Shown: positions 23,705-59,803 of the stretch, piece after piece
Position numbering within the stretch: the first letter of the stretch is position 1
Layout: every line of letters starts with the position of its first letter
From: an uncultured Nitrososphaerota archaeon
GTDB taxonomy: Archaea > Thermoproteota > Nitrososphaeria > Nitrososphaerales > Gagatemarchaeaceae
NCBI GenBank assembly: GCA_963718895.1
Contig: CAVRAG010000008.1
Location: 928,001 to 992,000 of the forward strand
Direction: 5' to 3'
DNA: 64,000 bases
Position numbers and translations under genes: made by a program
The notes under the pieces: model-generated
Seen by the model: the letters and a program-made list of their open reading frames with translations, nothing else
What the model was told of the DNA's origin: nothing
Databases searched by the model: none

Positions 23705-23806
23705 TGGTGCGGCGTGCGGGATTCGAACCCGCGCAATAGGCTGTCTTCCCCTCATCTTCCGACGAGGGATGGGAAGCCCATATCCTAACCACTGGATCAA
23801 CGCCGC
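23705..23806 (-). tRNA. trnG: tRNA-Gly(CCC) with 27-nt intron at 37/38 (23743-23769), CCA encoded
   Basis: GCGGCGT/ACGCCGC acceptor stem, TGGGC-TTCCCA^A-GCCTA anticodon arm, GCGGG-TTCGAAT-CCCGC T-arm. Confidence 0.93.
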
Positions 23807-42536: not shown

Positions 42537-43007
42537 ATGGCACCTGCACAGAAGGGCACACAAAAGTCCGCCGGGAGCGCCACCGCGACCAGCAAGAAGT
42601 CCGAGGGTTTCACGGACGAGGAACGAGCCGCGATGAAGGAGCGCGTCCAAGAGATGAAGGCGGACAAGGAAAAAGTAGAGGGGGAAAGCGCCGTACTCGC
42701 GAAAATCGCTGAAATGTCGGAACCGGATCGCACTATGGCCAAGCGACTCCACACTGTCATCAAAGCCAGCGCGCCTGGGCTCACGCCTAGACTCTGGTAC
42801 GGGATGCCCGCGTATTCCAAGGACGGCAACGTCGTCTTCTCCTTCAAACCAGCGGAGAAGTTCAAAATGAGGTATGCGACCTTTGAATTCAGCGACGAGG
42901 CGAACCTCGACGAAGGCTCCATGTGGCCGGTCGCCTTCGCATTGAAGGGGTTGACCGCCGCCGAAGAGGCGAGGATCGTCGCGCTCGTGAAGAAAGCGGT
43001 GAGCTAA
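42537..43007 (+). CDS. DUF1801/YdhG-like protein
   Basis: [31 protein letters not shown]. Confidence 0.8.
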
Positions 43008-43435
43008 AGGCGAAGTCACGCACGAGTCCCTCCCCGGAGGGCACTTCGGCCTCTCAACAGATAGACGCGATAATCAAGGAGCCGGGTGACTGGCGGGGCA
43101 AGGCATTATCGCAGCTGCGTACTCTAATCAAGAAAGCCGACCCCGCCGTGGTCGAAGAAGTGAAGTGGAAGAAACCCACCAACCCAATGGGAGTCCCCGT
43201 CTGGTCACATGACGGAATTGTCTGCACAGGAGGGACGCTCAAGAACGCCGTGAGGCTGACATTCCTCAAAGGTGCTCAGATGAAGGATCCAAGGAAGCTC
43301 TTCAACGCGAGTCTGAAAGGGAACGCGCTGCGTGCCATCGACTTCCACGAAGGTGACGCTGTAGATGAGGCTGCGTTAAGGGCACTCATCCTCGAGGCAG
43401 TAGAGCTGAACACGTCGAAAGTGCGCGAGCGATAA
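43004..43435 (+). CDS. DUF1801-family protein (start uncertain)
   Basis: DWRG...EEVKW...GVPVWSHDG...LTFLKGA...LFNASL. Confidence 0.8.
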
Positions 43436-43549
43436 GGCCTTGGCAGACTGAGAAGGAACGTTCCGAGTTCGAATGGGGTTCGGATCCGTTGACCTCCGAG
43501 AGCGGTTTTCCCCGGTCAGTCAATGATTCGTCGGGCTGAGCAGGAAAGC

Positions 43550-43634
43550 GGGCCGAAAGGGACCTACCCCTTGCAGGGGGTTGAACCTACGTCCAAAGCC
43601 ACGAGGGTTCGAGCCGCAGTCGGTCTCGAACCTT
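43550..43634 (-). repeat. Structured att-like repeat A (tRNA-Ile 3' end plus ~70-nt arm)
   Basis: GGGCCGAAAGGGA + hairpins; ~70/85 identical to 47663-47746 by manual alignment. Confidence 0.85.
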
Positions 43635-43713
43635 CCTATCATGTAGATATCATCAGGTCGTGGATGTTCGCGTCCCACTTTTCGAGACGCGCCATGCACT
43701 CCAGGACATCCTG

Positions 43714-45573
43714 CTACACCAGCAGCAGCCAAGCGGCAAAGATGACTAACGTAGCGATGAAGAGCCCCGCCCAAAGCCGCTTGCTGTGGTCGAAGATGTC
43801 TTTCCCGCTCATTGGAGAAATAGGAAAGGTGTAGAAGAAAGCGCCTATCACGCACATGGACAGGCCAGCTCCGCCAACGGCGGTGTAACCTCCCTTCAAG
43901 AGCAGGAAGAACAGCCCGGCAAAGGCCAGGTAGATGAGAACTCCAGACGCAGAGACTATGGCGCCCAACTTCTCCGTGAACTTCTTGGAGTTCACGTCCC
44001 GCGTAGGCGAAGAGAAAGGAACCTTGAAGACGAAGGTGGTGAAAAGAAAGAGGACGAGCCCCAGGGGCCAGATCACGTGCTCACTCCACACGCCCTTCAT
44101 TCGCAGGTACACTATGGAGAAGAAGCTCTGAACAAATGCAACGACAAAGCTTGTGGCGAGGAAGACCGGGAGCAACGCCCAAATCTGGCTCAGTGTAATG
44201 ACCTTGACGTAGGAGAAGGAAACAGCCAGGACGATTATGGACACGATGTACGCTAGGACTTCAGGTTTGGTGGGCCTGAAGAGAGAACCTTTCTTTTCTT
44301 TTGCATCGAGCTTGCGCTTGGATTCAATTACTTCTTCGAACCATTGTCTTATGTTGTCAGGGATTACGCCCTCGGTCTTGTCGGCGAGCGTTCCACCCAA
44401 GCCACCCAGGGGGTTGCTTATGGCGGCAAAGATCAGCGAAGCTGCTCCCACTATCGCCGCGGATACGCCCACCGCAGCAACCGCATTAGTTGGCGTGGGA
44501 ACCCAGACCTGCTGCACGATGTCTTGCGTAGAAGACGTTGTCGTCTGAACAATGCTTGATGTAGTGGTGGTGGACGCTGATGTAGTTGAACTGGTGGACC
44601 CGGATGCGGTGGATGAATCTGATATGACAGAGACCGTGCCCTCGCCTTCGTTGGCTACGAAGATCTCGCCCCTAGCAGGGTCATAGGCGGCGCCGTAAGG
44701 ATTGATCCCCACGGTTACAGTTGCGACGACGGAGTTGTTGCTGTCGGACATGACCGAGACCGAGGCCGAACCTCTGTTGAGCACGAATATCAGGCCCTTA
44801 GCAGGATCATAGATCGTGCCCCCGGGAGTGGTCCCCACCGTTGTGGTTGCGACGACGGAGTTGTTGCTGTCGGATATGACCGAAACGCTGCCTGAGACGG
44901 AATTGGCCACGAATACCTCGCCCTTGGCGGAATCATAGACTACGCCCAGGGGACCGCTTCCCACAGAGATGGTCGCGACCACCTGATTGCTGCTGTCCGA
45001 TATGACTGAGACAGAGCGGGAGTAGCTGTTGGCCACAAAGATCTCGCCTTTGGACGAATCATAGCCCAGGTCGTATGGACCGCTCCCCACAGGCACAGTT
45101 GCTACGACGGTATTGCTCTTGTCTGAGATGACGGAGACGGTGCCGGCGCCGGAATTGGCCACGAATACCTCGCCCCTAGCGGAATCATAGGCAAAGGATG
45201 AAGGGAAGGTCCCAACGGGCACCGTTGCTACTACTGTGTTGGTCTTGTCCGAGATGACTGAGACGGAGTTGGCACCATAGTTGGCAACGAAGACATCGCC
45301 TTGGCCGGAATCATAGACATCCCTGTATGGCGAGTGCCCCACGGTCACAGTTGCCCGCACGGCATAGCTGCTGTCCGACAGTACCACGACGGTGCCCGCG
45401 CTGGAATTGACCACGAATATTTCGGCCTTGCCGGAATCGTAGGCGACTCCATAGGGAGCGCCTCCAACCTTTATGGTTGAGATTACTCCGACGGCATGGA
45501 CCGCGCCCGCTGCTGACAAAGCAAGAACCACGATGAATGATAGGCCCAAGAGCGTCGAAACTTTGAAGCCCAT
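43714..45573 (-). CDS. YVTN beta-propeller fused to multi-TM site-2-protease-like domain
   Basis: Seven ~42-aa P-x-G-x-x-YDS-x-KGE-x-FVAN repeats, Thr/Ser linker, membrane domain. Confidence 0.8.
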   Translation of the reverse strand: MGFKVSTLLGLSFIVVLALSAAGAVHAVGVISTIKVGGAPYGVAYDSGKAEIFVVNSSAGTVVVLSDSSYAVRATVTVGHSPYRDVYDSGQGDVFVANYGANSVSVISDKTNTVVATVPVGTFPSSFAYDSARGEVFVANSGAGTVSVISDKSNTVVATVPVGSGPYDLGYDSSKGEIFVANSYSRSVSVISDSSNQVVATISVGSGPLGVVYDSAKGEVFVANSVSGSVSVISDSNNSVVATTTVGTTPGGTIYDPAKGLIFVLNRGSASVSVMSDSNNSVVATVTVGINPYGAAYDPARGEIFVANEGEGTVSVISDSSTASGSTSSTTSASTTTTSSIVQTTTSSTQDIVQQVWVPTPTNAVAAVGVSAAIVGAASLIFAAISNPLGGLGGTLADKTEGVIPDNIRQWFEEVIESKRKLDAKEKKGSLFRPTKPEVLAYIVSIIVLAVSFSYVKVITLSQIWALLPVFLATSFVVAFVQSFFSIVYLRMKGVWSEHVIWPLGLVLFLFTTFVFKVPFSSPTRDVNSKKFTEKLGAIVSASGVLIYLAFAGLFFLLLKGGYTAVGGAGLSMCVIGAFFYTFPISPMSGKDIFDHSKRLWAGLFIATLVIFAAWLLLV

Positions 45574-45665
45574 GATCGCTCACCAGCCTCGCTGGCAGGA
45601 TGAGGAAGATCGACTGTGACGCGATGAGTACAGAGGGGCCAACGTATGCGGAGGGAACGCAGAAG

Positions 45666-46868
45666 TCATTCTGTCGTACCGCGCCTTCTGTCCCTCTTCT
45701 GCGCGATGAGCGACAACGAGAGGACCACTCCGACCTGGACGGCCACGAGCACCAGGTAAGAAGCAGGGAGCGACGTGCTGGATGCTTGGCTTGATGTGGC
45801 GCTCTGGGTCGTGGTCGGACTTTGGCTGGTGGCTGTCGCGGAACTAGTCGCGATCGTTGATGCGGAAGAAGAATCTGAAAAGATATCGAGCGCGGCTGGC
45901 GTTGATCCGATGATTTCGCCCTTGCCAGAATCATACACTACCGACCCTAGTGAATTGGGAACTTGTGCGACCACTGCATTGTTGCTATCCGATATCACCG
46001 AGTTACCTACGAATATTTCGCCTTTGGCAGAATCATACGCTATGCCCTGAACTCCTGATAGCCCGGTCACGTTTGCAACCACTGCGTTTGAGCTGTCCGA
46101 GATGACCGAAACACCGTTGTAGCCGTTCGCCGCGAAGATTTCTCCTTTACTGGAATCATAAACTAAGCCAGAGGCGGTGACCCCGTTTATGGTTGCTACT
46201 ACGGTGTTGGTGCTATCAGATATTACTGAGATGCCCGGGCCAGAATTAGCGACGAAGATTTCGCCCTTGCCAGAATCATAAGCCATCTCTCTGGGGAAAA
46301 TTCCCACACCAACAAATGCGGTTACTGTATTGGTGCTATCCGATATGACGTAGACGCCTCCGAAGACATTTTGGCCGTTGCCTGCATCGGCAAGAAATAT
46401 CTCTCCTTTGGCGGAGTCATAAGCTACACCCCAAGGAAGCCACCATGAACCCGATGTCACGTTTGCAACCACTCGGTTTGTACTACCAGATAGAACCCAA
46501 ACCGCGGGAGGGATACCCTGAGCAGTTCCACTGCCTGAGGAGAGGAATATCTCGTGTTGTCCAGAATCGTAAGTCATCTCTGTCAGGAATCCGGGATACC
46601 CGGCTATGGTTACCGTTGCGACCACTTGGTTTGTACCATCAGATACAGCCGAAATGCCAGAGTAGCCTACCACGAATATTTCGCCATTGCTATAATCATA
46701 AGCCATTGCGCCGCTAATCTTGGGTATCGTGGAGGATACTGCCAGTGTTGGAATAGCATGAACACTGCTGATTGCTGAAAACGCAAAGGTCGTGATGAAT
46801 ACCAAGCCTAAGAGTTTCCAAACTCTAACTTTCATAAACACTCTCAACCTTCTGGCACCCATCGCCAA
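45666..46868 (-). CDS. Membrane-anchored YncE/YVTN beta-propeller
   Basis: YDSxKGEIF repeats, S/T linker, C-terminal TM plus basic tail. Confidence 0.8.
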   Translation of the reverse strand: MAMGARRLRVFMKVRVWKLLGLVFITTFAFSAISSVHAIPTLAVSSTIPKISGAMAYDYSNGEIFVVGYSGISAVSDGTNQVVATVTIAGYPGFLTEMTYDSGQHEIFLSSGSGTAQGIPPAVWVLSGSTNRVVANVTSGSWWLPWGVAYDSAKGEIFLADAGNGQNVFGGVYVISDSTNTVTAFVGVGIFPREMAYDSGKGEIFVANSGPGISVISDSTNTVVATINGVTASGLVYDSSKGEIFAANGYNGVSVISDSSNAVVANVTGLSGVQGIAYDSAKGEIFVGNSVISDSNNAVVAQVPNSLGSVVYDSGKGEIIGSTPAALDIFSDSSSASTIATSSATATSQSPTTTQSATSSQASSTSLPASYLVLVAVQVGVVLSLSLIAQKRDRRRGTTE

Positions 46869-47154
46869 GCCGAACTCCTCCCATATAGGACTTTTGCAAT
46901 TCCTACAACATAAGTTGTTGCTTCAGGAGAGTCTTATATCATCTGCCCGTCGAAACGATTGCAAATCAGGTTCTGCGAGTCGTTCTTGAAGCGCCGGGTC
47001 ACAGCCCCGCGAGACCGTCGCGCTTCTCCGGAAGATGAAATGGCCCATGCGTTCTCGGCATCTGCTTCAAGACCTATGAATTCTATGACATATGTTCTTT
47101 TTTAATGCAAAGTTTATAACGCAAAGCCAGTATCGGTTATCAGAGGGATTCGAA

Positions 47155-47361
47155 TTGGCCCAACAAACGACCACTGCGATAAAAGGGAATACGCATGCGA
47201 TGATCCTGGCTGTGTTAGGAGTGATTGCATTTATCGCCGGAGTCGCGGTATCGACCATCCACGGGACCGGTCTGCGTGGCTCGGGCTTGGGAACCCTTCT
47301 CATCGTGGCCGGCGTAGTGCTACTGATCATCTCCTACCTGCGTTTCTCTCGAAAGGTCTAG
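47155..47361 (+). CDS. Small two-TM protein
   Basis: Two hydrophobic helices; TTTATAA upstream. Confidence 0.55.
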   Translation: MAQQTTTAIKGNTHAMILAVLGVIAFIAGVAVSTIHGTGLRGSGLGTLLIVAGVVLLIISYLRFSRKV

Positions 47362-47662
47362 CAGAAGCCCAACCCTAGGAACTTGAAGTCGTTCTCACGA
47401 TCGATCTGGGTTTCAGAGATCATGACGCGCTCAGATTCGGGATTGGCGCACTGGCCAGGGAAGGTGGGTCGACGGGCGGAGTCGCTCGTGCCATCGCCCT
47501 CCTAGTGGTTATCGCGCTTACAGCGTCCGCCACCGTCCCCCTCCTGGTCGCGCCCTCCCCGGCAGGGGCAGCTACTCTATACAGGTCTGACGTGGTAATC
47601 TGATGACGACTTTGAGTCAACCTTCGGAAGCAGAAAAATGCGGCCCGCTGGCAAATGATGGT

Positions 47663-47746
47663 GGGCCGGAAGGGACCTACCCCTTGCAGGGGTGGACCCT
47701 GAGCCCAGAGCTACAAGGGTTCGAGCCGCGACTGGTTTCGAACCTT
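47663..47746 (-). repeat. Structured att-like repeat B
   Basis: GTGGGCCGGAAGGGA (47661-47675) identical to 59705-59719, followed by the same arm as repeat A. Confidence 0.88.
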
Positions 47747-47847
47747 GTTGCCGTAGCATGTTACTGTCGGTCTCGGTTTACTATCCCCACAGTCGGGCCC
47801 TCCTAAATTCACTCACAATAGGTCTGGTCATTTGACCGGGACGAACA

Positions 47848-49187
47848 CTACAGGACCCGGTCGACAAGAGGTATCTTCCTGATAAGATAGGCCAGCCCCC
47901 AGGTCGAGGGCACTATCATCACCGCTGCCAAGCCAAACTTGAGCAGCGACTCTAACTGGACCTGATAGAGCACGAGAGCCGAGAACATGACTATGACGGT
48001 GGCCTGCAGGAAGTACGCGGCGTAGAAGTTCTTCGCGGCAAAGCTCCAGAGTCTTCCCGGGGAGTTGAAGCGCTTGCGGAAGAACGAGATGGCGAACATG
48101 GTCATCCCCACAGCGAAGGTGGAATCCCAGAGCGCGTAGATGGCGGAGGACAACGACCCGTATCCGACCAGGCTGCCCCAGCCAAGCGAGCTCACTTCTG
48201 TGCCGATTATCGCAAGGACAAGCAGCGTCGCGCTCGCGATGAGGGCGATCTCAAAGAAGCGCTTCGCCATGGCGTCGGGCATCTTCCTCAGCCAGTCGCC
48301 GCGGGCGGCCATCGTCCCGACGATGAAGAAGCTCAGATACTGCGGCAGGTCGAAGAGGGAGGGGAAACCGAGCACTTGGGCATCTAGTGGCACCACGATT
48401 CTTAGCGCATAGGCAGCCGCAGCAAGGATCAGGATGAAGGCAGCTATCTTCCGGTATGATGGGAAAGAGCGGGCTTCTTTCGTTGCCCTGTCTCTCACAG
48501 CCACGCGCCAGATGACATAGCCGAACTCGAAGATGAGCAGCAGCTCGACGAACCAGAGAGGCCCGGTGCCCACCGACTGGGTAATGAAGGTCAGGTTCAA
48601 TCCCATGGGGGCAGTAATCCCCTGCTGGACCAGCTGATCAGCAGTCATGTGATAGAACGCTAGGTAGATGGTCAGCGGGTTGATGACGAAGAAGAAGACG
48701 GCGAGCGGGATGAACAGACGAATCAGCCTGTCCTTGATGAACAGCTTGGCACCCTTCCGGTCAAAAGAGCCAGGCGTGAAGTAGGCGGAGAGCAGGAAGA
48801 AGGCGCCGAGGAACCAGGCCTGGTTGAAGTTCGTGAGGAGAGTCAGCACCAGCGAGGCAACCGGGTCGGTTGCAGGCTCCGTGTAGTAGAAGGACCCTGA
48901 CCCTCCGTAGGTGATCGCCGTATGATGGAGGATCACGAGGCTCACCAGCGCCCCCCTGAGGTAGTCTACAAAGTAGATGCGCGTCTTACCGGGTTTGGTC
49001 CCCTTTTCCACCGGCGCCGGGCCCTGCGCGCTCACTTCCAAAGCACCCCAAGCACCACTATCACCGCCCCGACAACGAGCAGCGGGGCGGCGTACGGGTC
49101 TCCGAGACCTCCGATGCCGACGCGGACCACACCGATCAACGCGACTATGGCGCCCACCAGCAGGAGCCTGAGTTTCATGGCTTTCAT
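47848..49187 (-). CDS. Acyltransferase family 3 (OpgC/MdoC-like) membrane protein (frameshift ~49035)
   Basis: RIYFVDYLRG...VILHH, FFLLSAYF, DRLIRL, GPLWF. Confidence 0.85.
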
Positions 49188-49230
49188 GCACTCCACCTCC
49201 CTGGCCGCGGGAAGTATCGGGCCAGCCCGA

Positions 49231-49968
49231 CTACTTCCATTTCGTGAGTATCTCCTCTCTGCGGAAAGTGGCTCTGGCGACGTAAAGGAGCAGCAGGTCG
49301 ACCACCAGTAGGATGACGGCGATGATGAGGAGGACGCCCGTGTTGCCGAGCGGTACTATGCCGATTTCGCCGCCGACGTAGACCCCAGCGAACGGGAGTA
49401 TCAAGAGCATGCCGACCTGTTGCGCAACCCGAACGTCGCTCACCCTAGACGAGACGATGACGTTCCATTCAACACTCATTATCGCTGCGAGAGGGACGGC
49501 GAGCAAGAAGACGATGACAGCATTCCAGTTGGGAAAGAAGTAGTAACCCAATGTACCGTGTGTCACGAGGTCAATGAGGGTCATGTAGATTGCAGCCCCG
49601 ACCAGGATCGCGCCTATGGGCGGCAGGAATGATGAGATTCCCTTTCCCAGCAGGATTTCGCCGTCGGTGGTGGGGGTTGCCAGGAGCCGCTCGAAGCTCT
49701 TCTCGACTTTTTCGCCGATTATGCTGTAGGATGCGATCGTAGTCGGAATCAGGCCTGCGAGGATGAGGAAGAAGAAGGTGAGCGCCGGAAGAAGGTATGT
49801 GAGTTCGGAGGCGGCAATCCCGCTTTCAAGCTCGACATAGTAGATCACGACGGGAAGGAAGATCGCGGCAAGCAAGGGGATGACGAAGGCCGAATAGATT
49901 ATGTTCTTCTTCTTCAAGAACGTCTTGAAGTCCTTCGAGGCGATTATCCAGGATTTCGAGAGTCTCAA
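49231..49968 (-). CDS. ABC-2 type exporter permease
   Basis: IIGEKVEKSFERLLATP...ILLGK, six TM. Confidence 0.9.
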   Translation of the reverse strand: MRLSKSWIIASKDFKTFLKKKNIIYSAFVIPLLAAIFLPVVIYYVELESGIAASELTYLLPALTFFFLILAGLIPTTIASYSIIGEKVEKSFERLLATPTTDGEILLGKGISSFLPPIGAILVGAAIYMTLIDLVTHGTLGYYFFPNWNAVIVFLLAVPLAAIMSVEWNVIVSSRVSDVRVAQQVGMLLILPFAGVYVGGEIGIVPLGNTGVLLIIAVILLVVDLLLLYVARATFRREEILTKWK

Positions 49969-50888
49969 TTGTTGTCACGCCTCACGAGCTTCAGGTACGC
50001 ATCCTCCAGGGTTGAGCCGACGACTGTGACGGATTGGACATGGCCGCCGGCCTGGTAGATCGCGTCCGTGATGGCGACGTTCTCTTTCTCTGGATCCTTG
50101 ACATCGAATGTCAGTTTGTTGCCGTCGATTGACAAGTCTACGGGTGACAGTTTCCTCAGCGCGGCGAGGATCGCGTCGTTCACCTCCACGACCTGAACCA
50201 CGGTCTTCCTCCCGCTTACCGAACGCTCCAACTCTTCCGGGGTGCCCAGCGCCATCAGCTTCGTGTTCAGGATTGCAATCCTGTCGCAGATTCTCTGCGC
50301 CTCATCCAGGTTGTGCGTGTTCAGAAAGATGGTCCTTCTCTCTCTCTTCAGCTCCAGGATGAAGTCCCTGACCGTCTTCGCCGACTCTGGGTCGAGGTTC
50401 GCCGTTGGCTCGTCCATGAAGAGTATCTGTGGGTCGTGGATGAGGGCGCACGCTATCCCGAGCTTCTGCTTCATCCCCTTCGAGTAGGTGCCGACCGCGG
50501 CGTCTTTCCTCTCCCAGAGCCCCAGCATCATGAGGAACCTCCGGATGTTCTCCTTCCTCTGCGCCTCCGTGCAGTCATAGAGCTTCCCGTAAAAGTCCAG
50601 GTTGTCGTAGGCGCTGAGGGCATCGTAGAGGCCCACGTTGTCGGGGACGAACCCGACGAGCTTCCTTATCTTGAGTGACTCAGCTTCGTTACTAACGTCA
50701 TAGCCAGCGACCCTCGCATCACCGCTGGTCTTTGATATCAGACAGCAGAGCATTCTGACCGTGGTGGTCTTCCCCGCTCCGTTGGGCCCGAGGAACCCAA
50801 AGACCTCTCCCTCCTCGACTCGGAGGGTCACGCCATCGACCGCGGTCAGGTCCCCGAATTTCTTGGTCAGGTTAACTGTCTCGATCAA
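49965..50888 (-). CDS. ABC transporter ATP-binding protein
   Basis: GPNGAGKTT, YSKGMKQK, FMDEPT, TH. Confidence 0.95.
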   Translation of the reverse strand: MIETVNLTKKFGDLTAVDGVTLRVEEGEVFGFLGPNGAGKTTTVRMLCCLISKTSGDARVAGYDVSNEAESLKIRKLVGFVPDNVGLYDALSAYDNLDFYGKLYDCTEAQRKENIRRFLMMLGLWERKDAAVGTYSKGMKQKLGIACALIHDPQILFMDEPTANLDPESAKTVRDFILELKRERRTIFLNTHNLDEAQRICDRIAILNTKLMALGTPEELERSVSGRKTVVQVVEVNDAILAALRKLSPVDLSIDGNKLTFDVKDPEKENVAITDAIYQAGGHVQSVTVVGSTLEDAYLKLVRRDNN

Positions 50889-51019
50889 TCACACCACAAC
50901 GGCTCGACGTTTTGAAGAACGCCCCTGGCGGGTAGTTAAACGGGGGAGATAGTTCACTTTAGTGAACTCGCACCATCATTTTATAGCGAGCGGATTCTGA
51001 TTCTGGAATAGTCTGCCCA

Positions 51020-51664
51020 TTGGAAAGCGATGTCCTGCAACAGCAGCGCATAGAGGCCGAACTGATCGCCGCGAGGCTCTTCCGATTCAGGGCAAGAAGG
51101 GGCCTTGGAGTACTCTACTCTCTCGCTTCAGTGGTACCTCTGATGGCAATCATCCTCTACGTCACGGTTCCAATCCCGTTCGCAATCGCTGGAGCGATAG
51201 CCGGCAGCGTCGCTGTCTGGTTTGTCGCGAGGTTGTGCGGATACGGCGGATTCTCGAGGATGCAGTACAGCCTGGACTTCCTGAAGGGAGAGGGAGGGAC
51301 GACCTACGATGAGAGGAGGGGCCGCTGGTTGTCTTGGCGCAACTTCGCTTGGTTCTTCTTGACCGTCGGGCCCTGGCTTGGATACACGATCGCCAATGAA
51401 GAGGGCTATCCTATCTTTTCAGGGATGTCCCTCGTGATTGTGGCCTTGATCTTGGGATTTTCACAAGCGACGAAGCAGGATCGCATCGTCGAAAGAAGGG
51501 TGGAAGACTGGGCATTCGTAGCGGGGATGATCCTAATCGCCTTCGCGGCCATCCTCCCCGGAGCTCCGGCATGGACCTGGGTTCTCGCGTCACCTCTCTT
51601 TGTATTCTGTGGAACGAAATCGCTCTACGAGGCACCCAAGGAGTTTGCACTGGTTGCCTCCTGA
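51020..51664 (+). CDS. Multi-TM membrane protein
   Basis: Six hydrophobic segments; coupled to downstream HTH. Confidence 0.6.
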   Translation: MESDVLQQQRIEAELIAARLFRFRARRGLGVLYSLASVVPLMAIILYVTVPIPFAIAGAIAGSVAVWFVARLCGYGGFSRMQYSLDFLKGEGGTTYDERRGRWLSWRNFAWFFLTVGPWLGYTIANEEGYPIFSGMSLVIVALILGFSQATKQDRIVERRVEDWAFVAGMILIAFAAILPGAPAWTWVLASPLFVFCGTKSLYEAPKEFALVAS

Positions 51665-52019
51665 GTCGGGACAGGGCGACAGCCGGGTGGGAAAGGAAGA
51701 GGAGGACCTGGTTTCTGACGTGGGATTACCCGGACCGTTTTCGGTCTCGACACGGGTGGGAATAATGACTGCTCTTCTCGGATTCAAGAGGACCACCTTC
51801 ACGGAATTGCTCCTTGCCGTCAAGACTCCGAAGAGCTCGCTCAACAAGAATCTCGGGATCCTGGAAGACTATGGACTCATCAAGCAACGCAAGGCTTTTG
51901 TCCTCGCCCCGGGCCCGAGGACAGTCATCGAGATAACCCCTGAAGGAGAGGAAGCCACCAAGAAGCACCTTGAATTCATGCGCACTCTGGCAGACCGACT
52001 TCTCGGACCGAAGGAATAA
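51654..52019 (+). CDS. Winged-helix (ArsR/MarR-like) regulator
   Basis: RVGIMTAL...TFTEL...SSLNKNLGILEDYGLI...ITPEG. Confidence 0.75.
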   Translation: MPPESGQGDSRVGKEEEDLVSDVGLPGPFSVSTRVGIMTALLGFKRTTFTELLLAVKTPKSSLNKNLGILEDYGLIKQRKAFVLAPGPRTVIEITPEGEEATKKHLEFMRTLADRLLGPKE

Positions 52020-52179
52020 GCGTCTCCTGCGAGGCGTTAGCTGAAGATAAAAGTGATTGGGTCGTAAAGGAGTCCCTGGTCTGTCGCTGATACGACTCCC
52101 TCCCTCTCGCTCCTCTTCGAACGAGCCCAAAATAGCATCAAATCACCACACGCAGTTCATTCTGGGCTAATCTGAATAA

Positions 52180-52191
52180 TGGGCCGGAAGG
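52180..52191 (-). repeat. attR-like copy of tRNA-Ile 3' end
   Basis: TGGGCCGGAAGG identical to 59706-59717; AT-rich flank. Confidence 0.75.
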
Positions 52192-52287
52192 TATGCATTT
52201 AATTAATTAAGCGAATCCTTACAACCGCACCATTCATTTTTCAGAGGTTTCTGATTCATTCGTATCTCCTTGGCGTGTCGCCGTATA

Positions 52288-53830
52288 TTACTCGAAGATC
52301 CCGCTGAAGGAAAGTGTCTGACCATCACTCATCGTAATGACTCCGGCGAAGGAGTCGCCATAGCTTTGGTTCCCGGGTAGACTCGTGATGTAGACAGAGC
52401 AAAACGAATAGCGGTCGAATAGTTTAGCGCATTGATCCATTGACAGGTGAAGAATACGTTGACCCTCCAAATGTAAGGGCGATGGAGGAAATGTTTGGGC
52501 TATACCCTCCGGCATCCCACGGCTCGTAGACGCTTATTACTCCTACCGCATTTGCTGGCGAAACAACAGCTTCCGAGTCTAGGCTTGGACTGCAGCATAC
52601 GAGCGACTAGCTGAGAACCCTGACCCTCTGGGTGGACCAAGTCGGCCATTACACTGACATTGTAACCTTTAGAAGGATAGTTGCTTCCTGGATAGGTATA
52701 GTTGATTCTGAGCAATTGTTGGTCGGGTATGAGAGCTATATGGGTAGATTCCCTTGGCGTCGAGATACAGACTCCCAAGGTAATCACTTACTGGCGCGGC
52801 CAATGTGACCGTGATTCCCTTGGAAGGCCCTAGTCCATCGACTCTCCCCACAATGAACCACTTAGGGGAGGACTGGGCTTCATGCTTATGATGGAGAATG
52901 GAAGCGATGCCTCTAAGCTGGTTATTGTCGCATTGGTCGAAGTGAATTGTGGTGCGAAGTAAAGTTGACTGTCAGGCTGGTTGAAATAATGTCGTGAGAT
53001 GGGACCCAATCATTGTAGCATGGGTTGTAATTGAATTGAGCGCAAAGGCTGAGTGGTTGGATAGCCCGTGAGGCCGGAATCGCATCCCAGACTGAAACCG
53101 CCCCTTGAAGTTCGATGGTGACTCCCGATGGGAGAAAGCAAGGGAACATTGCACACTGATTGGTGACCGTTAGATTATACCCATTCGGCCCTAACGGAGA
53201 AGGGTACAATCCAATCCCGGTCAAGACTATGAATGGGGGTCCCGTATCGTTGTAAATTGAAAGCACCATGACGTCGCCCACTTCAGCTCCTGTAAGCAAG
53301 GAGATTCTTGACGGAAGGCTGACGTTCTGCACGACGAACGAGCTGTAAAGTGAACTGGAGGAAGTCGAGTACGCTTTCCCCACCGTCGAATATAGTGCGT
53401 GTTGAATGGTGCGATCGGATGCTGTTACGTAGACGTCTCGTCCCTCAGGCATCGTAGTGCCTGAGGCGGGGACCTGAAGCACCTGTCTCCCCACAAACGA
53501 AATATTTTGCCATGCGAAATATCCGTACTTCGAATCGCTTGAGGAAATCAGGGCCTGGAACTGAAACAGCGCAGGTCCAGCCGTATGCCCACTGCTAATC
53601 TCTGAGTTGGTGTTGGTAGACGTAAGGGATTGTGTTGTCTGAAACGACGATGAACCAATTGTGGCCGTTGAAGACGAGTTACCTGGTTGTGTTATCGAGG
53701 AAGACGAACTTTTTTGGGGATTTAGTGATGTGGCCAGTCCTATTCCAGCTCCAAGAATTACAAGAAGAACTATTCCGATTATCACTATCCTGCCAATGGC
53801 ATAGCGTCGTCGAGATAGACTGCGACTCAC
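52288..53830 (-). pseudogene. Fragmented secreted/archaeal pilin-leader S/T-rich protein
   Basis: ORF 52922-53830 with RRRYAIG-hydrophobic leader; further same-strand fragments to 52288; low GC. Confidence 0.45.
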
Positions 53831-53999
53831 GTTTTGACTTCTAAATCTCCAAAAATCCCATCGACTTCTTATTCTTTCCGAGTCAGGTAGCTATTGCGTT
53901 TCCTGACCATGCGACAGGTTCCGTTCAACCAATAGCACGCCTCATCCTTATCCAGCTAGCTAGGCACGGCTTAATAGAAACGAACCTGGTCTATCGGGC

Positions 54000-54620
54000 G
54001 TGTCAGAAGATTCGTTACCTCCTGGTTTCACGATAGCACGCCCGAGCATCACTCAAAGGATGCGGGCGTTGCGAACAAACAGGTTCCTGAGAATCGGTGT
54101 CATCCTCGTTCTCGCGGCAAGTTTGGTGCTTCTGACCTATTCCTATGGGGTTCGGTTTCCGACCAGCGCACCAATCGCTGACTGGATCACCGCCACAACG
54201 CTGGTCATCGGGTTAATATTCGGAGAAGATATTCGCACTCGCTTTTTTATCAAACCTGAACTTGGCTAACACTCTCAACCCGAGACCAAAAAACTTCGGG
54301 AAAGACCACTGAAGCAAGCGAGACTCTTACCGATTGGCTCTCGCCACAATTACGAGTTACAACAGGAGTTCTCAGGGTTGTATCGCCTATTTCTCTGCAG
54401 ACGGATTGCGCATGGCGCCTTAGGTGCATATGAACGGCTAAGCTGGCAATTTTCGATAGGCGATCCCGATGTAGAGGAGATAGCAGACAGGACGGACATC
54501 CGAGAAGGAGACAGTAAGGTATTGATGCTGGTTTATTCGAGGAGCGAAGGCGCATCCTATTACTTCGATTCTCAGGAGCATCAAACGGCGGACGACCCGA
54601 AATACAGGTTAGAAACCTGA
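54000..54620 (+). pseudogene. Fragmented membrane-associated hypothetical
   Basis: Two same-strand ORF pieces (54000-54269, 54378-54620). Confidence 0.35.
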
Positions 54621-54878
54621 CAGATGGTATAAGGCAACAATCCTCATCGTGGATAGGAACCGACGAGAGAAGGAATGGAATATCCGAATCCATTCTACTA
54701 AGAAAGGCGAGTTAGGAGTCTATCGTAAAGAAGAGGTCCCCGATGATGAGAAGTAAATATCAATTCCCTTCGACATGAACTCGCTCTTGGATACCCTAAG
54801 GATGGGTGTACCTCCAAAGCAGCTTCTTTTCCCCAAAATAGCTCAATTATTCCCCCTTTCCTAGCCCCCCTCAGGCGA

Positions 54879-55110
54879 GCCCATAGCAAGCAACACCCCC
54901 GCGAATCGAGCTCTTTCGGAGCGAAGATGAGCGGCCCCGCTTCAAGGCGGGGTGAAGGCGAAAGCCGAGCGGAGGGGCAAAGAGGGGGGAGGGAGCCCCG
55001 AAGGGGCGGAAGGCCGTGAGGAGCGAAGCGACGGACACGGCGAGCGAAGCGAGGGGGTGAATTTGCACCGAAGCGAAGGATGAGCCTGAAGGGCGTTGCT
55101 TGCTATGGGC
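54879..55110. other. Hairpin-rich non-coding region bounded by 20-bp inverted repeats (putative single-strand origin/oriT)
   Basis: GCCCATAGCAAGCAACACCC (54879-54898) vs GGGCGTTGCTTGCTATGGGC (55091-55110), 19/20; internal GCGAAGC and GNRA-type hairpins. Confidence 0.6.
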
Positions 55111-56977
55111 GAGCATTCTTTTCGCTAAGGAACTCTGCGAGTGTCGCCACATTGACCCGCGAACTCTTCAGCCTGGCGTATCTGTCGCTCTTCGCGATGT
55201 CAGAGTTCGGGACAAGGACAATGAACGGCTTGATAGCGCTGAGCTTGGAGATGCGTTCCTCAAGGTCGCTCGTCCTCGTCTTGAGCCCCGTCTCTATCTC
55301 GTAGTATGCGCTCTCGGTCTCTACATCGGCGAGGCTCTGCCCCGACTCTGCCACGCTGATGACCTTCTCCTGATTCTCGCTCAGCCTGTCGAGTAGCTGC
55401 CTTACCATGTATCGGTGAAGGCCGCTGACCTTCTCTTCCCCGCTCTTCGCAAAGTACAGGGAGAGGGTCTCTCCCGACTCGGCATCGTCGTACTTCTGCG
55501 CCTGGACTTCTCCGGCGCTGAGAAGCTTCAGGAGAACGTCCCTGACCTTCAGCTTCGCGACATTCTTGTCAATGTGGTAGTTCTCTTCTATTTGGCTGGC
55601 TAGATCGGGAGACCCAGACCACGTCACCATTGTCGAGCCTCTCCCTGACTATCGCGCCGTAGTCTATCGCGGGGTTTTGCGACTGAGCACTAGCAACATC
55701 AGCGGGCGCGCCATACTGCGCCTGGCGGTCTGGAAGCTCGACCCTGTCCGCCCTGAAGATCGGGATTATGCCGCCGTTCCCGACCCGAAAGGTGAGGTCT
55801 ATGAACTGGTGAGGGCGCAGCTCCTTCACTATCCAGACGTAGGCGGAGTCTATCTTGCGTATCGCCTCCAAATCTCTCTCGGACGTGGTGTTGAAGACAA
55901 GCTGAGTCGCAAACTGGTTCCTGAGCGCGTCGGGTATGTCGGAGTAGTTCTGCGTGGCCGTATAGAGGGCGCCGAACTGCCTGATTTGCCGCATCAGGGT
56001 ATCAACAATCGTCCTCGCCTCGGTCTCGTAGAGCTGTGTGAGCCTGTGAACCTCGTCTATCACGATGAGGGTCTTCCTCTTCTCCTGCAATCCGAGCCTG
56101 CTCGTCAGCGAACTCCATATCTGCCTCAGCGCGATCTCGGCGTAGAACGTCTTCGCGCTCTCGTCGAGGTATGAGAAGTCTAGGACTGTGTCTTTGGCGA
56201 GGTCTATGCTGAAGGAACCCTCCCCGACGACCAGACCCCCAATCTGTGCCTCTATCAGCGCGAGCGCTTCCTTCTGTATGTCGGTGGCCTTCCTTCCCGT
56301 GCGCTTGAGGTTGTCCTTGAACTCGCTCCAGTTCTTGCTTTCGCGAGCGACGCTCTTGACTATCGCCCTGACCTGCGAGAAGGTAATACCCCTCACATTG
56401 GCTGGGAAGGCCAAGAGCGTATGCTATCGAGAACGCGTCCGCGTCCTGGAACGGGTCGGGTATGTGTCTTGGAGACGTCTATCACCTGGCATGGCATACG
56501 AAGGTAGGCGTCGTTCGGCTTGAACGAGAAGACGATCTTGGGCTCCTTCGCCGAGAGCAGGAGGACGTTCATCAGCTCGCTCTTGCCCATGCCAGAGCGG
56601 CCGCAGACCATCACGGACGGGTTTCCCTTCCGTCCGATGTATTCCTCAAAGTTCACGTAGCAGTGGTCTATCCGCTTGACGAGAGGTATCTCCCGCTTCC
56701 CGTATCTGACTACCTCGGGACGGCTCCTGCCAGACGCGGATTGCCTGTATTCTACGATGGGCTCCAAGAGGTCGGCGAAGGCAACCTGCCTTATCGGGGT
56801 GCGAGCGAACCTCCTCAGTATGCTCGTTCTCATTATCAGCAGCGCAGCCATGGCAATAGGAATGAGAGCGACTGCGATCAGGACGGGCTTGCGACTGTAG
56901 AGGAGCGGGAAGGCTATCAGGATCAGGAATGCTACGATCTCGTGCTTCGTCTTCTCGGTGAAGGTTGAGACGTTCAT
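55103..56977 (-). CDS. Membrane-anchored HerA/VirB4/TraD-like ATPase with C-terminal nuclease-like domain (about 3 frameshifts)
   Basis: N-terminal TM; GRSGMGKS; IVIDEVH; ATQN; C-terminal LH...ADVE...EIETG. Confidence 0.7.
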
Positions 56978-57165
56978 CTGAATTCCTCCCTGAGTATGGC
57001 AAGCCAGGTCCCTAGCTTCGCTACGAACTCAGTGGCCGAGAGAGTGTCAGGCTCGGCGGCAAGGACTCTTCTGAGGAGGGACTCGCTGTCCAGTGTTGTT
57101 GCGGCCAATTCCTTCAGCTGCCGGATGTCCACCGTGCGCTCGTCCAGCACTAACTTACCTACCAT
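56974..57165 (-). CDS. Small hypothetical protein of integrated element
   Basis: 63 aa, overlaps ATPase start, divergent from HTH gene. Confidence 0.65.
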   Translation of the reverse strand: MVGKLVLDERTVDIRQLKELAATTLDSESLLRRVLAAEPDTLSATEFVAKLGTWLAILREEFR

Positions 57166-57222
57166 ATCGGTAGGAGCCGAAAAACGACAGAATTATAAGC
57201 CTTCCTACTTAGTAGGTATGCG

Positions 57223-57894
57223 ATGAATGCAGTCCCAGTAAAGGTCTCTCTCCTTCAGCTTCTCGAAGTTGAGCCGAAGCGTTACTCCGACGTGGTGAGA
57301 GAGCTGGGAAGGCCGGACAAGACGGTTTACGTGACGCTGGTGGCGCTCGTGGACTCGAAGCTCGTTGCCAAGAACGACGAAGGAAAATATATCCTGACGG
57401 ACGCTGGCAAGCGTGAACTGGAACGAATAAGGTTCGTCAGAATGGCGGAGGAGGAGGACGATATCGAGATTATCTCGAACACGCGGACGGCGATAGCGTT
57501 GGGCAGGTGCTACGATCTCCTGTTTGACATCCGCTATTTATTGTCCCGAACGCCAAAAGCCGAAGGAGAAGACAGACGGGCGGTTGGCGAAAGGATGAAT
57601 GTCATTAGAAACCTTCTGCTGAAGTACAACCCATCACTGAAGAAGGATGAGCTGCTGAAGGAAGAGAAGAAAGGACTTGACATCGGCATTGCAGACCTAG
57701 TAAGCGGCGGGATATGGTGGGGAAAGAGGTTCGTCAAGTGGGGGCTGAAGGATAGGTACATTCACCTCGTGAATCTTACGCGCGAACTCCCTGAGGGCCC
57801 GGTAAAGGACGAAATACTAGCCTCACTTGCGTTGTTTAGAGAGGTGGTCGGGAAGCTGGATAGCAGACTGAAGGAGTTGGCCGCGTATTCTTGA
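57223..57894 (+). CDS. Winged-helix DNA-binding protein
   Basis: PKRYSDVVRELGRPDKTVYVTLVALVDSKLV...YILTDAG. Confidence 0.75.
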   Translation: MNAVPVKVSLLQLLEVEPKRYSDVVRELGRPDKTVYVTLVALVDSKLVAKNDEGKYILTDAGKRELERIRFVRMAEEEDDIEIISNTRTAIALGRCYDLLFDIRYLLSRTPKAEGEDRRAVGERMNVIRNLLLKYNPSLKKDELLKEEKKGLDIGIADLVSGGIWWGKRFVKWGLKDRYIHLVNLTRELPEGPVKDEILASLALFREVVGKLDSRLKELAAYS

Positions 57895-58169
57895 CGCTCT
57901 CGGAGAGAGCCTGGAAGCACATCCGCGAGAGGCATCCCGAACTCTCGAACTACGAAGGATTGATCAGGGACGCGCTCGCCGGGCCCGACATCGTCCTGAA
58001 GGGCGATCAGGAAGAAAGGAAGGCGGTCAAGCTGTTCACGAAGACTCATCTCGGGTCCAAGTACCTCGTTGTTGTCTATCGGGAGGAGAGCGGAAAGAAG
58101 GATATAATAACGGCCTACTTCACTTCAGATTTGAAGAGAGTCAAGGGTGAGCCAATATGGAAAGCCTAG
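57891..58169 (+). CDS. Putative RNase-type toxin (RelE/BrnT/BECR-like)
   Basis: WKHIRERHPEL...KYLVVVY...IITAY; translationally coupled to DUF2283. Confidence 0.65.
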   Translation: MTLSERAWKHIRERHPELSNYEGLIRDALAGPDIVLKGDQEERKAVKLFTKTHLGSKYLVVVYREESGKKDIITAYFTSDLKRVKGEPIWKA

Positions 58170-58354
58170 TCGTGAAGCCTAAGAAACTGGACATAGACTA
58201 CGACGAGAAGAGCGACGTGCTCTATATCTCAGTGGGCAAACCGAAGGAGGCAGACGACTCAATCGAGCCACAAGAGGGCGTTGTGATGAGGACTCGGAAG
58301 GGCGAGCTCGTGGGCATCACGATCGTGGGTCTGAAAGCTCATCTCAGCAGATAG
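58157..58354 (+). CDS. DUF2283-family putative antitoxin
   Basis: IDYDEKSDVLYI...GELVGITI. Confidence 0.85.
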   Translation: MESLVVKPKKLDIDYDEKSDVLYISVGKPKEADDSIEPQEGVVMRTRKGELVGITIVGLKAHLSR

Positions 58355-58365
58355 GTGCGGGCATT

Positions 58366-59654
58366 TCAAAACGGGAGTTTCATTATCGCTTCTCCGTCCG
58401 GCAGCGAAGCCACGTATTCGAAGCCCTGATTGATGTATGACTTGACCTCCTTAACGGGTATGACCTTCTGCCTCGACCCATTGCTGTTCATCATCCCAAC
58501 TAGCCGCTGCCTGACCAGGCTCTGAAGTTCCTCATTCGTCATGTCGTCGAGATTCATCTTCTCAAGCTCTTCTTTCTTGAACCCTGCAACGATGAGGAAC
58601 CGTTCGTTGAACGCCTTACTGATCTGCTTCTCGGTGGCTGACTCTGCCTTTGTGGAGAGGAGAGAGTCGCACTTCTTGTAGGCTTCCCTCATCTCCTCGA
58701 TCATCGAGGGTGGGAGCGTCCTTTGTTCGTCGAATACCTGGCCTCGATGTCCCCTTTGTGCCCCATCAGGAACTGGAGGTAAGGATGTGAGATGAAGCCC
58801 TTCGACTCCGCAACGATCATGCCGGTGTCACAGTAGGCTCTAAGGACGTAGGGTCTCCATGTGAAACCTGCCTTGAGAATCGCTTCCTTCACGTCTCTCG
58901 TCACGAGGGTGGTTCTCAAGAACCGATTCTTCCTGATGCCCCTCGGGTCGAATGCGAGGAGCGCGCTTTCGGCGGTAAGCTTCTCTCCCTGCTTGACCCT
59001 CTCCTGAATGTGCTCTTGGATGTAGGTGATCGCCTCGCCGCTGACGAACGCGAAGTAAGGGTGCCTCGCCTTGCTCAGCGCCCTTCTCACGAGCAGAATC
59101 GTAGGGACCTTCTCGAACTCGATTCCGTCGTCCCTTACCTTTGCCTCGGTGAAGTCTCCCAATCGTATCCCATCCGTCCCGAGGTAGTCGCCGAGGCTCT
59201 CAGGTCTGAGACCGCTGAACGCCATCAGCGCAACCGAAGTTCTTCCTCTGGGTGATGCCATCCTGAGGATTCTCGATAGTTCGTCCTTGCTCGGAATCCT
59301 TTCGCGGGCTATCGTTGGGGTGTCGGAACTTCCCTTGATGTTCACCTTCAGCTTCACGTCGAGGTTGTTGTAGGAAGTCCAAGAGAGGATGACCTTCCTG
59401 AATCGCTCGATGTAGGAGCCCGCCTTCCCGTCCTTCTCCATCCTCCTGACGAAGTCGGTAAATTCGTCCCTGAACTTCTTGGATCGTGCCTCTGCCAGTA
59501 TCTCTCTCGGCGTGGTCTTTGCGAGGTTGGAGTATAGCCCCAGCGTCCTCAGGTAGACCGTCGCAGTGATGACGGACTTGGCTTCGAGGTTCTCATACCA
59601 TCTGCGGACATCCTGATCGTCGAGAAGATGCCTGTATTTGCTCCCAAAGGGCAT
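58366..59654 (-). CDS. int: Tyrosine recombinase/integrase (frameshift ~58710)
   Basis: SGLRPE (R), ALSK (K), PYVLR (YxxR variant), LMGH...RY; starts ~50 bp downstream of tRNA-Ile. Confidence 0.9.
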
Positions 59655-59705
59655 ATTTGGTCACTGGAAGGGCAATTTAATAAAGGATTCTCTTAATAAT
59701 TTAAG

Positions 59706-59803
59706 TGGGCCGGAAGGGATTCGAACCCTCGACCTCTCGATTATCAGTCGAGTGCTCTAGCTAAGCTGCCCGCTCTCTTATCGGAGCTCTGAGCTACCGG
59801 CCC
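59706..59803 (-). tRNA. trnI: tRNA-Ile(GAT) with 23-nt non-canonical D-loop intron (15/16; 59766-59788)
   Basis: GGGCCGG/CCGGCCC acceptor, CTCGA-CTGATAA-TCGAG, GAGGG-TTCGAAT-CCCTT; BHB-like GCTC/GGGC helix. Confidence 0.88.

Follow-up and report, generated by a model that had tools for sequence, protein, structure and literature searches.

A repeated element with a tRNA-Ile-derived core as a candidate attachment-junction module of integrative elements in Nitrososphaerales

We examined a 64,000-nucleotide stretch of DNA, here called the window, from an uncultured archaeon of the family Gagatemarchaeaceae in the order Nitrososphaerales (contig CAVRAG010000008.1, positions 928,001 to 992,000; C8:928001-992000 of G000, a 3.13-Mb assembly of 11 contigs). 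Downstream of a tRNA-Ile(GAU) gene, the window carries two copies of a short repeated element. The account of this element that we favour, at about even confidence, is a conserved attachment-junction module of Nitrososphaerales integrative elements that target the 3′ end of tRNA-Ile(GAU), made up of a tRNA-derived core, a palindromic T-arm-like arm and an outward promoter. The host is a soil archaeon, in which the module forms the end piece where islands piled up behind tRNA-Ile.

Results

The element ends in the 3′ sequence of tRNA-Ile

A first-pass annotation of the window had drawn attention to copies of a structured element at 43550-43634 and 47663-47746, and both hold up: copy 1 and copy 2 are 82% identical over 85 bases (E 2.2e-17, BLAST with copy 1 as query against the whole genome), and in their pairwise alignment similarity begins and stops abruptly at the element borders. 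The same search returned a third copy at G000:C4:78401-78486 (77%, E 3.8e-11) and otherwise chance-level matches only. No longer segmental duplication, which would have refuted the first-pass annotation, surrounds any of the three copies in this genome.

The element had been described on the plus strand with an extent of ~85 nt, but the better fold, and the sequence of a tRNA 3′ end, are found on the minus strand, and the unit measures ~108 bases with a promoter-like motif upstream. Both of the hairpins described, and the unpaired base assigned to the second of them, are present. On the minus strand, hairpin A comes first, hairpin B second and the tRNA-derived core last, at the 3′ end. The palindrome of hairpin A is almost perfect, with one conserved base left unpaired and two arms that are each T-arm-like; the 3′ arm of hairpin B, which is acceptor/T-stem-like, is the tRNA-derived core itself, the 5′ arm is an imperfect inverted copy, and a short GC hairpin stands between the two. 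We found no copies in this genome that consist of hairpin A only.

Copy 2 (47655..47762, minus strand; 112.5 bits with covariance model R1) has hairpin A at ~47709-47752 and a hairpin B that ends in a 14-base core (47662..47675, minus strand) equal to the T-stem 3′ strand, acceptor 3′ strand and discriminator of tRNA-Ile. The tRNA-like ends proposed earlier are borne out, the left end of copy 2 being the tRNA-Ile 3′ end and its right end resembling T-loop and T-stem, and the two tRNA-like parts (14 and ~9 bases) flank an insert of ~62 bases exactly at T-loop position 59/60, which is one of the positions of non-canonical tRNA introns. Copy 1 (43542..43650, minus strand; 98.3 bits with the same model) has both hairpins and a degenerate core at 43549-43562 on the minus strand. 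Copy 2 and the C4 copy agree with the final 14 bases of tRNA-Ile at 14/14 positions and copy 1 at 12/14, and the exact 14-mer occurs at only four places in the genome, namely tRNA-Ile, copy 2, the C4 copy and a plain fragment at C4:81508.

The presumed target, tRNA-Ile(GAU), lies at 59705..59803 on the minus strand and is recognised by ARAGORN with introns allowed, which places a 33-base intron at position 25 in the D-arm region; its 3′ part matches the Rfam tRNA model at 50.7 bits, and default ARAGORN and Rfam read it only as a truncated 70-base gene. Elsewhere in the window, a second intron-bearing tRNA at 23708-23806 (minus strand; Rfam 55.8 bits) is a tRNA-Gly(CCC) with a 27-base intron according to ARAGORN with introns, and was missed by default ARAGORN. 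At the element itself no Rfam family was called, either at gathering thresholds on the whole window or with E up to 10 on 43000-48500, and tRNA models (Rfam RF00005 and ARAGORN) gave no tRNA at either copy even with E up to 10. Over 13 loci, ARAGORN called no tRNA at the element, its sole call being a tRNA-Pro in locus L018 that adjoins a partial copy.

Related genomes and metagenomes hold further copies with different flanks

Searching beyond this genome, as the first-pass annotation had proposed, uncovered at least 30 further copies in Nitrososphaerales genomes and metagenome contigs. By family-wide BLAST the element occupies 12 places in 6 of 97 genomes, our own included, and a covariance model built from nine full copies matched in 5 of 151 genomes of an order-wide sample, again with our own among them; the extra matches in this sample are weak and doubtful, L022 being a different inverted T-arm by a tRNA fragment and L023 and L024 sharing the GC hairpin only. 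The pattern of hairpin A matched 24 metagenome contigs. Core and hairpin B searched as one pattern matched four genome contigs, three of them known copies; the fourth, L059 from a Phycisphaerales metagenome-assembled genome, was rejected as a chance match inside a bacterial coding region. Locus L022 (G219:C66, 1550-1595) belongs to another family of the order and carries an inverted copy of its own T-arm directly before the tRNA 3′ fragment.

Alignment to the model yielded 36 matches, 34 of them distinct. The copies are 75-95% identical, the 34 distinct ones keep both palindromes, many keep the upstream motif, and 14 contain the exact 14-mer of tRNA-Ile, while the flanks on both sides differ from copy to copy. 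Copy 2 is 90% identical to the copy in G021:C85 but 82% identical to copy 1, and because copies within a genome are not closest relatives, the module appears to travel and to be maintained. Its distribution across the family and the order sample is patchy. Most of the relatives' contigs are short and end within a few kb of the copies, and among 20 flanking open reading frames (ORFs) of 12 loci, Pfam revealed no common neighbour family.

A promoter-like motif precedes hairpin A

When rows are anchored at hairpin A, a conserved block resembling a B recognition element and TATA box (BRE/TATA-like) stands ~22 bases before it; conserved purine-rich sequence borders the block upstream but not downstream. 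Of 29 rows, 15 match a strict TATA-like pattern at this position, versus 0/29 and 0/29 in two control stretches placed farther upstream. The motif occurs seldom in the host genome (four loose matches, among them the C4 copy) and does not resemble the sequence that precedes host tRNA genes, and an ATG is conserved right at the predicted transcript start. Judging by these features, the module seems to carry its own outward-facing promoter. The motif has decayed in about a third to a half of the copies, including several divergent ones and copy 1 (43652-43668, minus strand; upstream row L001). In copy 2 the family motif is present in weak form (47775..47790, minus strand), ~22 bases before hairpin A, and ~15-30 bases past the core there is a terminator-like GC palindrome with a T-run behind it (47630..47650, minus strand), a feature that L043 and L050 have as well. 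A second BRE/TATA-like motif, without hairpin A, occurs in L027 at 1868-1880 (G018:C56), ~55 bases past the module core and before a tRNA-Pro gene.

The window holds an accretion array behind tRNA-Ile

Successive integrations behind tRNA-Ile have produced an accretion array within the window. Reading away from the tRNA, the order is a 7.5-kb integrase-bearing element (E2b), block E2a, copy 2, block E1, copy 1 and then genes conserved in the genus, and G+C content is lowered across 40-60 kb of the window. The copies close successive blocks at the same end, as had been noticed, but the earlier description of the surroundings as integrase-less is wrong for the array, since a tyrosine recombinase gene (P0001, 317 aa; 58701..59654, minus strand) adjoins the tRNA, 50 bases after it. 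P0001 matches a generic archaeal XerA-type model of NCBIfam over residues 25-299 (E 1.8e-5, below cutoff) and a PHROG integrase (E 1.2e-3), the catalytic-type motifs of its family are conserved in five paralogues, and a PDB sequence search gave no useful match. Paralogues elsewhere in the genome immediately follow tRNA-Asp and tRNA-Pro(GGG) genes (G000:C8:628062-629720, C9:5322-6432, C11:6925-8034 and C5:6828-7602, the one on C5 being frameshifted). C9 and C11 hardly differ, and the tRNA-Thr/tRNA-Leu end of C8 is found again in C10, which suggests assembly redundancy or strain variants.

Element E2b (52192..59704; G+C 0.49-0.58) encodes the integrase, a TrmB-like regulator, a HerA/FtsK-like ATPase in pieces spread over two ORFs (55569-56977) and unknown proteins, several of its ORFs being without a family. 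Its borders are defined by the plain 12-bp copy of the tRNA-Ile 3′ end at 52180..52191 on the minus strand, found by 12-mer count and forming the distal direct repeat, and by inverted repeats of ~15 bases just inside both cores. Beyond the plain core comes a flank that we call class b (52146..52179, minus strand); it also follows tRNA-Ile in L034 (L034 1715-1763 is 88% identical to window 52146-52194 by BLAST) and follows the module in L034, L048, L049, L003 and L015. Block E2a (47763..52145) holds an acyltransferase_3 gene, an ABC transporter pair and unknowns (Pfam), and block E1 (43651..47654) two NHL-repeat proteins and small ORFs (Pfam), with low G+C at 46-47 kb by composition. Blocks are 4-7 kb long with several genes on both strands. 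The unit of the window's integrase is bounded by the plain 12-bp core, and the units that end in the module carry no integrase. Copy 1, farthest from the tRNA and oldest, has both core and promoter decayed. The acyltransferase/ABC block is also present in G036:C97, there without the ABC genes.

Companions of the module at other loci

Downstream of tRNA-Ile and on the same strand, the module lies at 12 and 16 kb in the window, at 1.8 kb in G021:C85 and at 1.6 kb in L034. In L032, L040 and L056 the core is succeeded, on its own strand, by an integrase gene or the remnant of one. What comes after the core in L038, L041 and L045 is the integrase-proximal arm motif, a short sequence that in the window stands between tRNA-Ile and the integrase. 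Plain tRNA-Ile 3′ fragments form arrays too, at C4:81508, three in a row in G014:C1 and in several genomes of the genus, and short integrase-less units of 1.3-4.4 kb recur in arrays. On contig C4, an array at G000:C4:78401-99611 comprises the module copy, a 33-base plain tRNA-Ile fragment 3 kb off (C4:81508-81540) and an integrase fragment (C4:99252-99611); ARAGORN called no tRNA-Ile anywhere on this contig.

Other tRNAs appear at the module's borders. In L011 and L027 the module has a tRNA-Pro gene on one side and a further tRNA fragment on the other; in L060 the inverted tRNA-Pro fragment on the promoter side has a tRNA-Pro-type integrase after it; and in L018, L036 and L053 hairpin A with its promoter stands without hairpin B. 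Together with the variable neighbours, these hairpin-A-only forms and tRNA-Pro borders show a module that behaves as a small unit bounded by recombination cores. The tRNA-Pro fragment of L060 (2860-2925) contains a 21-base insert between T-stem 5′ strand and T-loop, with the integrase after it, and at G000:C3:61350-61510 an additional inverted segment either breaks the T-arm of a tRNA-Pro 3′ fragment at a junction or pairs with it. T-arms that are split or inverted may thus be common to attachment (att) arms of this kind.

An attachment junction as the favoured explanation

Integration behind tRNA genes is ordinary, and the proposal of a recombination or mobilisation site survives in part: the core, the position at the ends of blocks and the companion integrases and fragments tie the element to site-specific recombination at a tRNA, whereas the accompanying analogy to integron attC sites is not supported (see below). 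Under the attachment-junction explanation, a tyrosine recombinase of the type found beside tRNA-Ile would cross over within the short core. Proteins would bind the element-side arm at the half-sites of hairpin A that resemble a T-arm and at the inverted copy of the core in hairpin B, and the promoter would fire outward over the junction. By analogy with Pcirc of ICEclc, once the element is excised as a circle or stands in tandem, transcription from that promoter might run on into an integrase gene or the neighbouring unit.

Several observations weigh against this explanation. An intact unit running from module through integrase to tRNA-Ile was not recovered, and all four units that are whole between two Ile cores (E1, E2a, L034 and G021:C85) lack an integrase. 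Three loci of one lineage (L038, L041 and L045) have the module 630 bases upstream of tRNA-Ile with a tRNA-Ala between, which does not fit the geometry of a distal junction, and in that lineage the 8 kb upstream yielded no mobile-element genes. What lies on the promoter side is not a single conserved element, and in 7 of 36 rows an inverted tRNA-Pro 3′ fragment lies ~80 bases off on that side, so that the module can look like a free-standing unit of ~200 bases between two cores. Block E2a (window 47824-52022) recurs at 90% identity in G018:C39 beside tRNA-Leu(GAG) without the module, which is therefore not an integral or fixed end of E2a, and blocks move; there (L062, 5500-13500) the block lies between direct repeats of ~150 bases, within which the tRNA-Leu 3′ end recurs in degenerate form. 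No clean empty site came out of searches of the genus, whether the query was the two flanks or block E2a, the contigs being fragmented, rearranged or split, and two pattern scans of viral contigs gave 0 matches. The binding sites, the crossover point and promoter activity are, moreover, features that we infer.

Alternative explanations

The module could instead be a free-standing gene for a tRNA-Ile-derived small RNA, a small noncoding RNA having been the first-pass annotation's second suggestion; we regard this as a real possibility, if an unlikely one. The transcript, of ~100-145 bases, would have a 5′ hairpin and a minihelix-like hairpin that mimics acceptor and T-stem with the tRNA-Ile 3′ strand and discriminator, and the gene would double as a second attachment target or portable landing pad. 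Its 3′ end being a tRNA 3′ end, integrases could use it as a target, which would explain the integrases and the variable DNA downstream, and the genes or remnants straight after the core in L032, L040 and L056 sit as integrases do after real tRNAs. The directional BRE/TATA-like motif before hairpin A, a conserved unit with sharp edges just upstream of the motif and at the discriminator base, and the terminator-like palindromes with T-runs (copy 2, L043, L050) all suit such a gene, and the geometry of L038, L041 and L045 is that of a separate gene.

Folding speaks on both sides of this question. Fold z-scores for the two copies are -1.7 and -4.4 on the minus strand (copy 2: -4.37, a point in favour of an RNA) and -1.8 and -2.5 on the plus strand, and either strand folds as two independent hairpins whose outer ends are unpaired. 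Hairpin B has 65 G-U against 22 A-C cells, so its helix is better on the minus, transcribed strand, as a small RNA would have it; hairpin A is symmetric (9 versus 12). The covariation check proposed earlier came out at control level, with 91.8% of cells paired over the 34 distinct rows versus 91.1% after shuffling and 5 both-side pair changes versus 2.8 expected (reached by 46 of 500 shuffles), and it provides no evidence for a selected RNA fold; the copies are too alike, and the search pattern had fixed the arms of hairpin A in the 24 metagenome loci. The 5′ arm of hairpin B, which pairs with the core, has uncompensated mismatches in many copies. Further arguments against the small RNA are the patchy distribution, which does not suit a housekeeping RNA, the decay of the promoter motif in about a third to a half of copies, copy 1 among them, the missing Rfam and tRNA-model matches, and the occurrence of hairpin A and promoter without hairpin B.

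A more elaborate version, which we think decidedly unlikely, would make the module a portable mini-gene carried by thaumarchaeal mobile elements, with a strong BRE/TATA promoter and a tRNA-Ile-derived minihelix RNA bearing a 5′ hairpin. As DNA, the mini-gene would offer accreting islands a landing pad that can move, a surrogate attB with T-arm-like recombinase half-sites; its RNA, with a tRNA-like end, would be cut by RNase P and tRNase Z, and in a circle or an array it would couple integrase expression to the state of integration.

Functionless relics are also conceivable, and in our view improbable: decaying tRNA-Ile 3′ fragments displaced by integration, of which one ancestor gained the ~62-base T-loop insertion and was then copied passively. 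The tRNA-like parts flanking the insert exactly at position 59/60, the plain fragments without insert that coexist with the module, the decay of copy 1 and the tRNA-Pro fragment of L060, whose T-arm is likewise split by an insert, fit this history. However, 34 distinct copies retain both palindromes, and often the upstream motif, at 75-95% identity while their flanks differ, and the closer kinship of copy 2 to G021:C85 than to copy 1 points to a module that travels and is maintained.

The analogy to integron attC, in which the element would be a folded single-strand site with extrahelical bases and the blocks between copies gene cassettes, has very little to recommend it. It is true that structured sites recur at the ends of successive integrase-less blocks, that these blocks are stacked behind a fixed site near a tyrosine recombinase, that hairpin A has a conserved unpaired base, and that short integrase-less units of 1.3-4.4 kb recur in arrays. 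attC sites are single imperfect palindromes whose outer ends, R′′ and R′, are paired, with extrahelical bases, and their structure is kept while sequence varies; the R′ consensus is GTTRRRY, and an IntI-type integrase recombines the folded bottom strand. Here, by contrast, the ends do not pair with each other and two independent hairpins form, the sequence is conserved and not structure alone, GTTRRRY is not seen at the element ends, the blocks of 4-7 kb are multi-gene and use both strands, the core is clearly the 3′ end of a tRNA, like that of ordinary double-strand att sites, and covariation stays at control level. We rejected the analogy on these grounds.

Scarcely credible is a coding explanation, the N-terminal piece of an SSV-type 'suicidal' integrase split by integration, with hairpin A opening on a leaderless ATG and the reading frame running across the core, for which the ATG conserved at the predicted transcript start and the C-terminal integrase fragment after the core in L056 could be cited, but which we rejected on frames and indels: one-base differences in loop length shift the frame between copies, all three frames in the window are closed within ~20 codons after the tRNA, the family's integrases have their own conserved N-terminus downstream of the tRNA, and the pieces in L056 are in different frames with the N-terminal domain simply missing.

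Discussion

The closest known counterparts of the module as an attachment junction are the attL/attR sites of thaumarchaeal integrated mobile genetic elements (iMGEs), which are short direct repeats of a tRNA 3′ end, with the integrase by the tRNA and a site that is re-used to give arrays (Krupovic et al., 2019, PMC6563490; PMC8371274). These att sites have a median length of 17 bp, reach down to 8 and lie in tRNA genes in 57% of cases, and arrays of them are known (PMC6563490; PMC8371274); the core described here, at 12-14 bp, falls within that span (PMC6563490). Unlike the iMGE att junctions so described, the present element has a conserved double palindrome arm of ~95 bases, T-arm-like half-sites and a promoter-like motif, and it recurs at many loci whose sequences on either side vary. 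The word 'promoter' does not occur in the main text of PMC6563490. We found no description of such a module in the literature covered, the supplementary att tables of PMC6563490, which may list tRNA-Ile sites, being outside that scope.

Two bacterial systems resemble the array and the promoter. Cis-mobilisable elements (CIMEs), known from the literature on the integrative and conjugative element (ICE) ICESt of Streptococcus thermophilus, are integrase-less blocks bounded by att sites that stand in tandem with an ICE. The window resembles such accretion arrays in that integrase-less, att-bounded blocks stand in tandem with an integrase-bearing element at one tRNA-linked site; it differs in its archaeal host and in that the att remnants of the putatively mobilisable integrase-less blocks have another architecture than those of the integrase-bearing element. 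As described in PMC5812530, the outward promoter Pcirc at the far end of ICEclc drives the integrase gene after circularisation. The promoter-like motif of the module likewise lies at the att-distal end and faces outward through the core, and in three loci (L032, L040 and L056) an integrase gene or remnant stands just past the core. Unlike Pcirc, the predicted promoter is separated from the core by a structured leader of ~100 bases and is of archaeal BRE/TATA type.

Likenesses of a looser kind concern structure. Like integron attC, the module supplies repeated structured sites of ~60-140 bases between blocks near a tyrosine recombinase, but it has two hairpins instead of one, high identity between copies, a tRNA-derived core and large multi-gene blocks. 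Like the non-canonical-intron and split tRNA genes of Thermoproteota and Nanoarchaeota, it is interrupted in the T-loop/acceptor region at 59/60 and has a predicted promoter of its own, and the host tRNA-Ile itself has a non-canonical intron. Unlike these genes, however, the module is without D-arm, anticodon arm and 5′ acceptor strand, it has no tRNA-model match, and no partner half was found.

To our knowledge, att sites of Thaumarchaeota are known only as very short repeats, and we know of nothing on their arm sites or on the control of integrase expression. For both, the module supplies a definite candidate that is widespread (34 distinct copies) and readily tested: its palindromes of T-arm-like half-sites may show what these recombinases recognise, and its predicted promoter points outward at the junction. 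It marks island boundaries in the fragmented genomes of uncultured Nitrososphaerales, and it indicates that small integrase-less blocks (acyltransferase/ABC, NHL-repeat proteins) move between tRNA-linked sites. Should the mini-gene version be true, it would be an archaeal, tRNA-based counterpart of the integron platform, and if the module were a transcribed tRNA-derived RNA gene on which islands land, it would represent a novel type of accretion platform.

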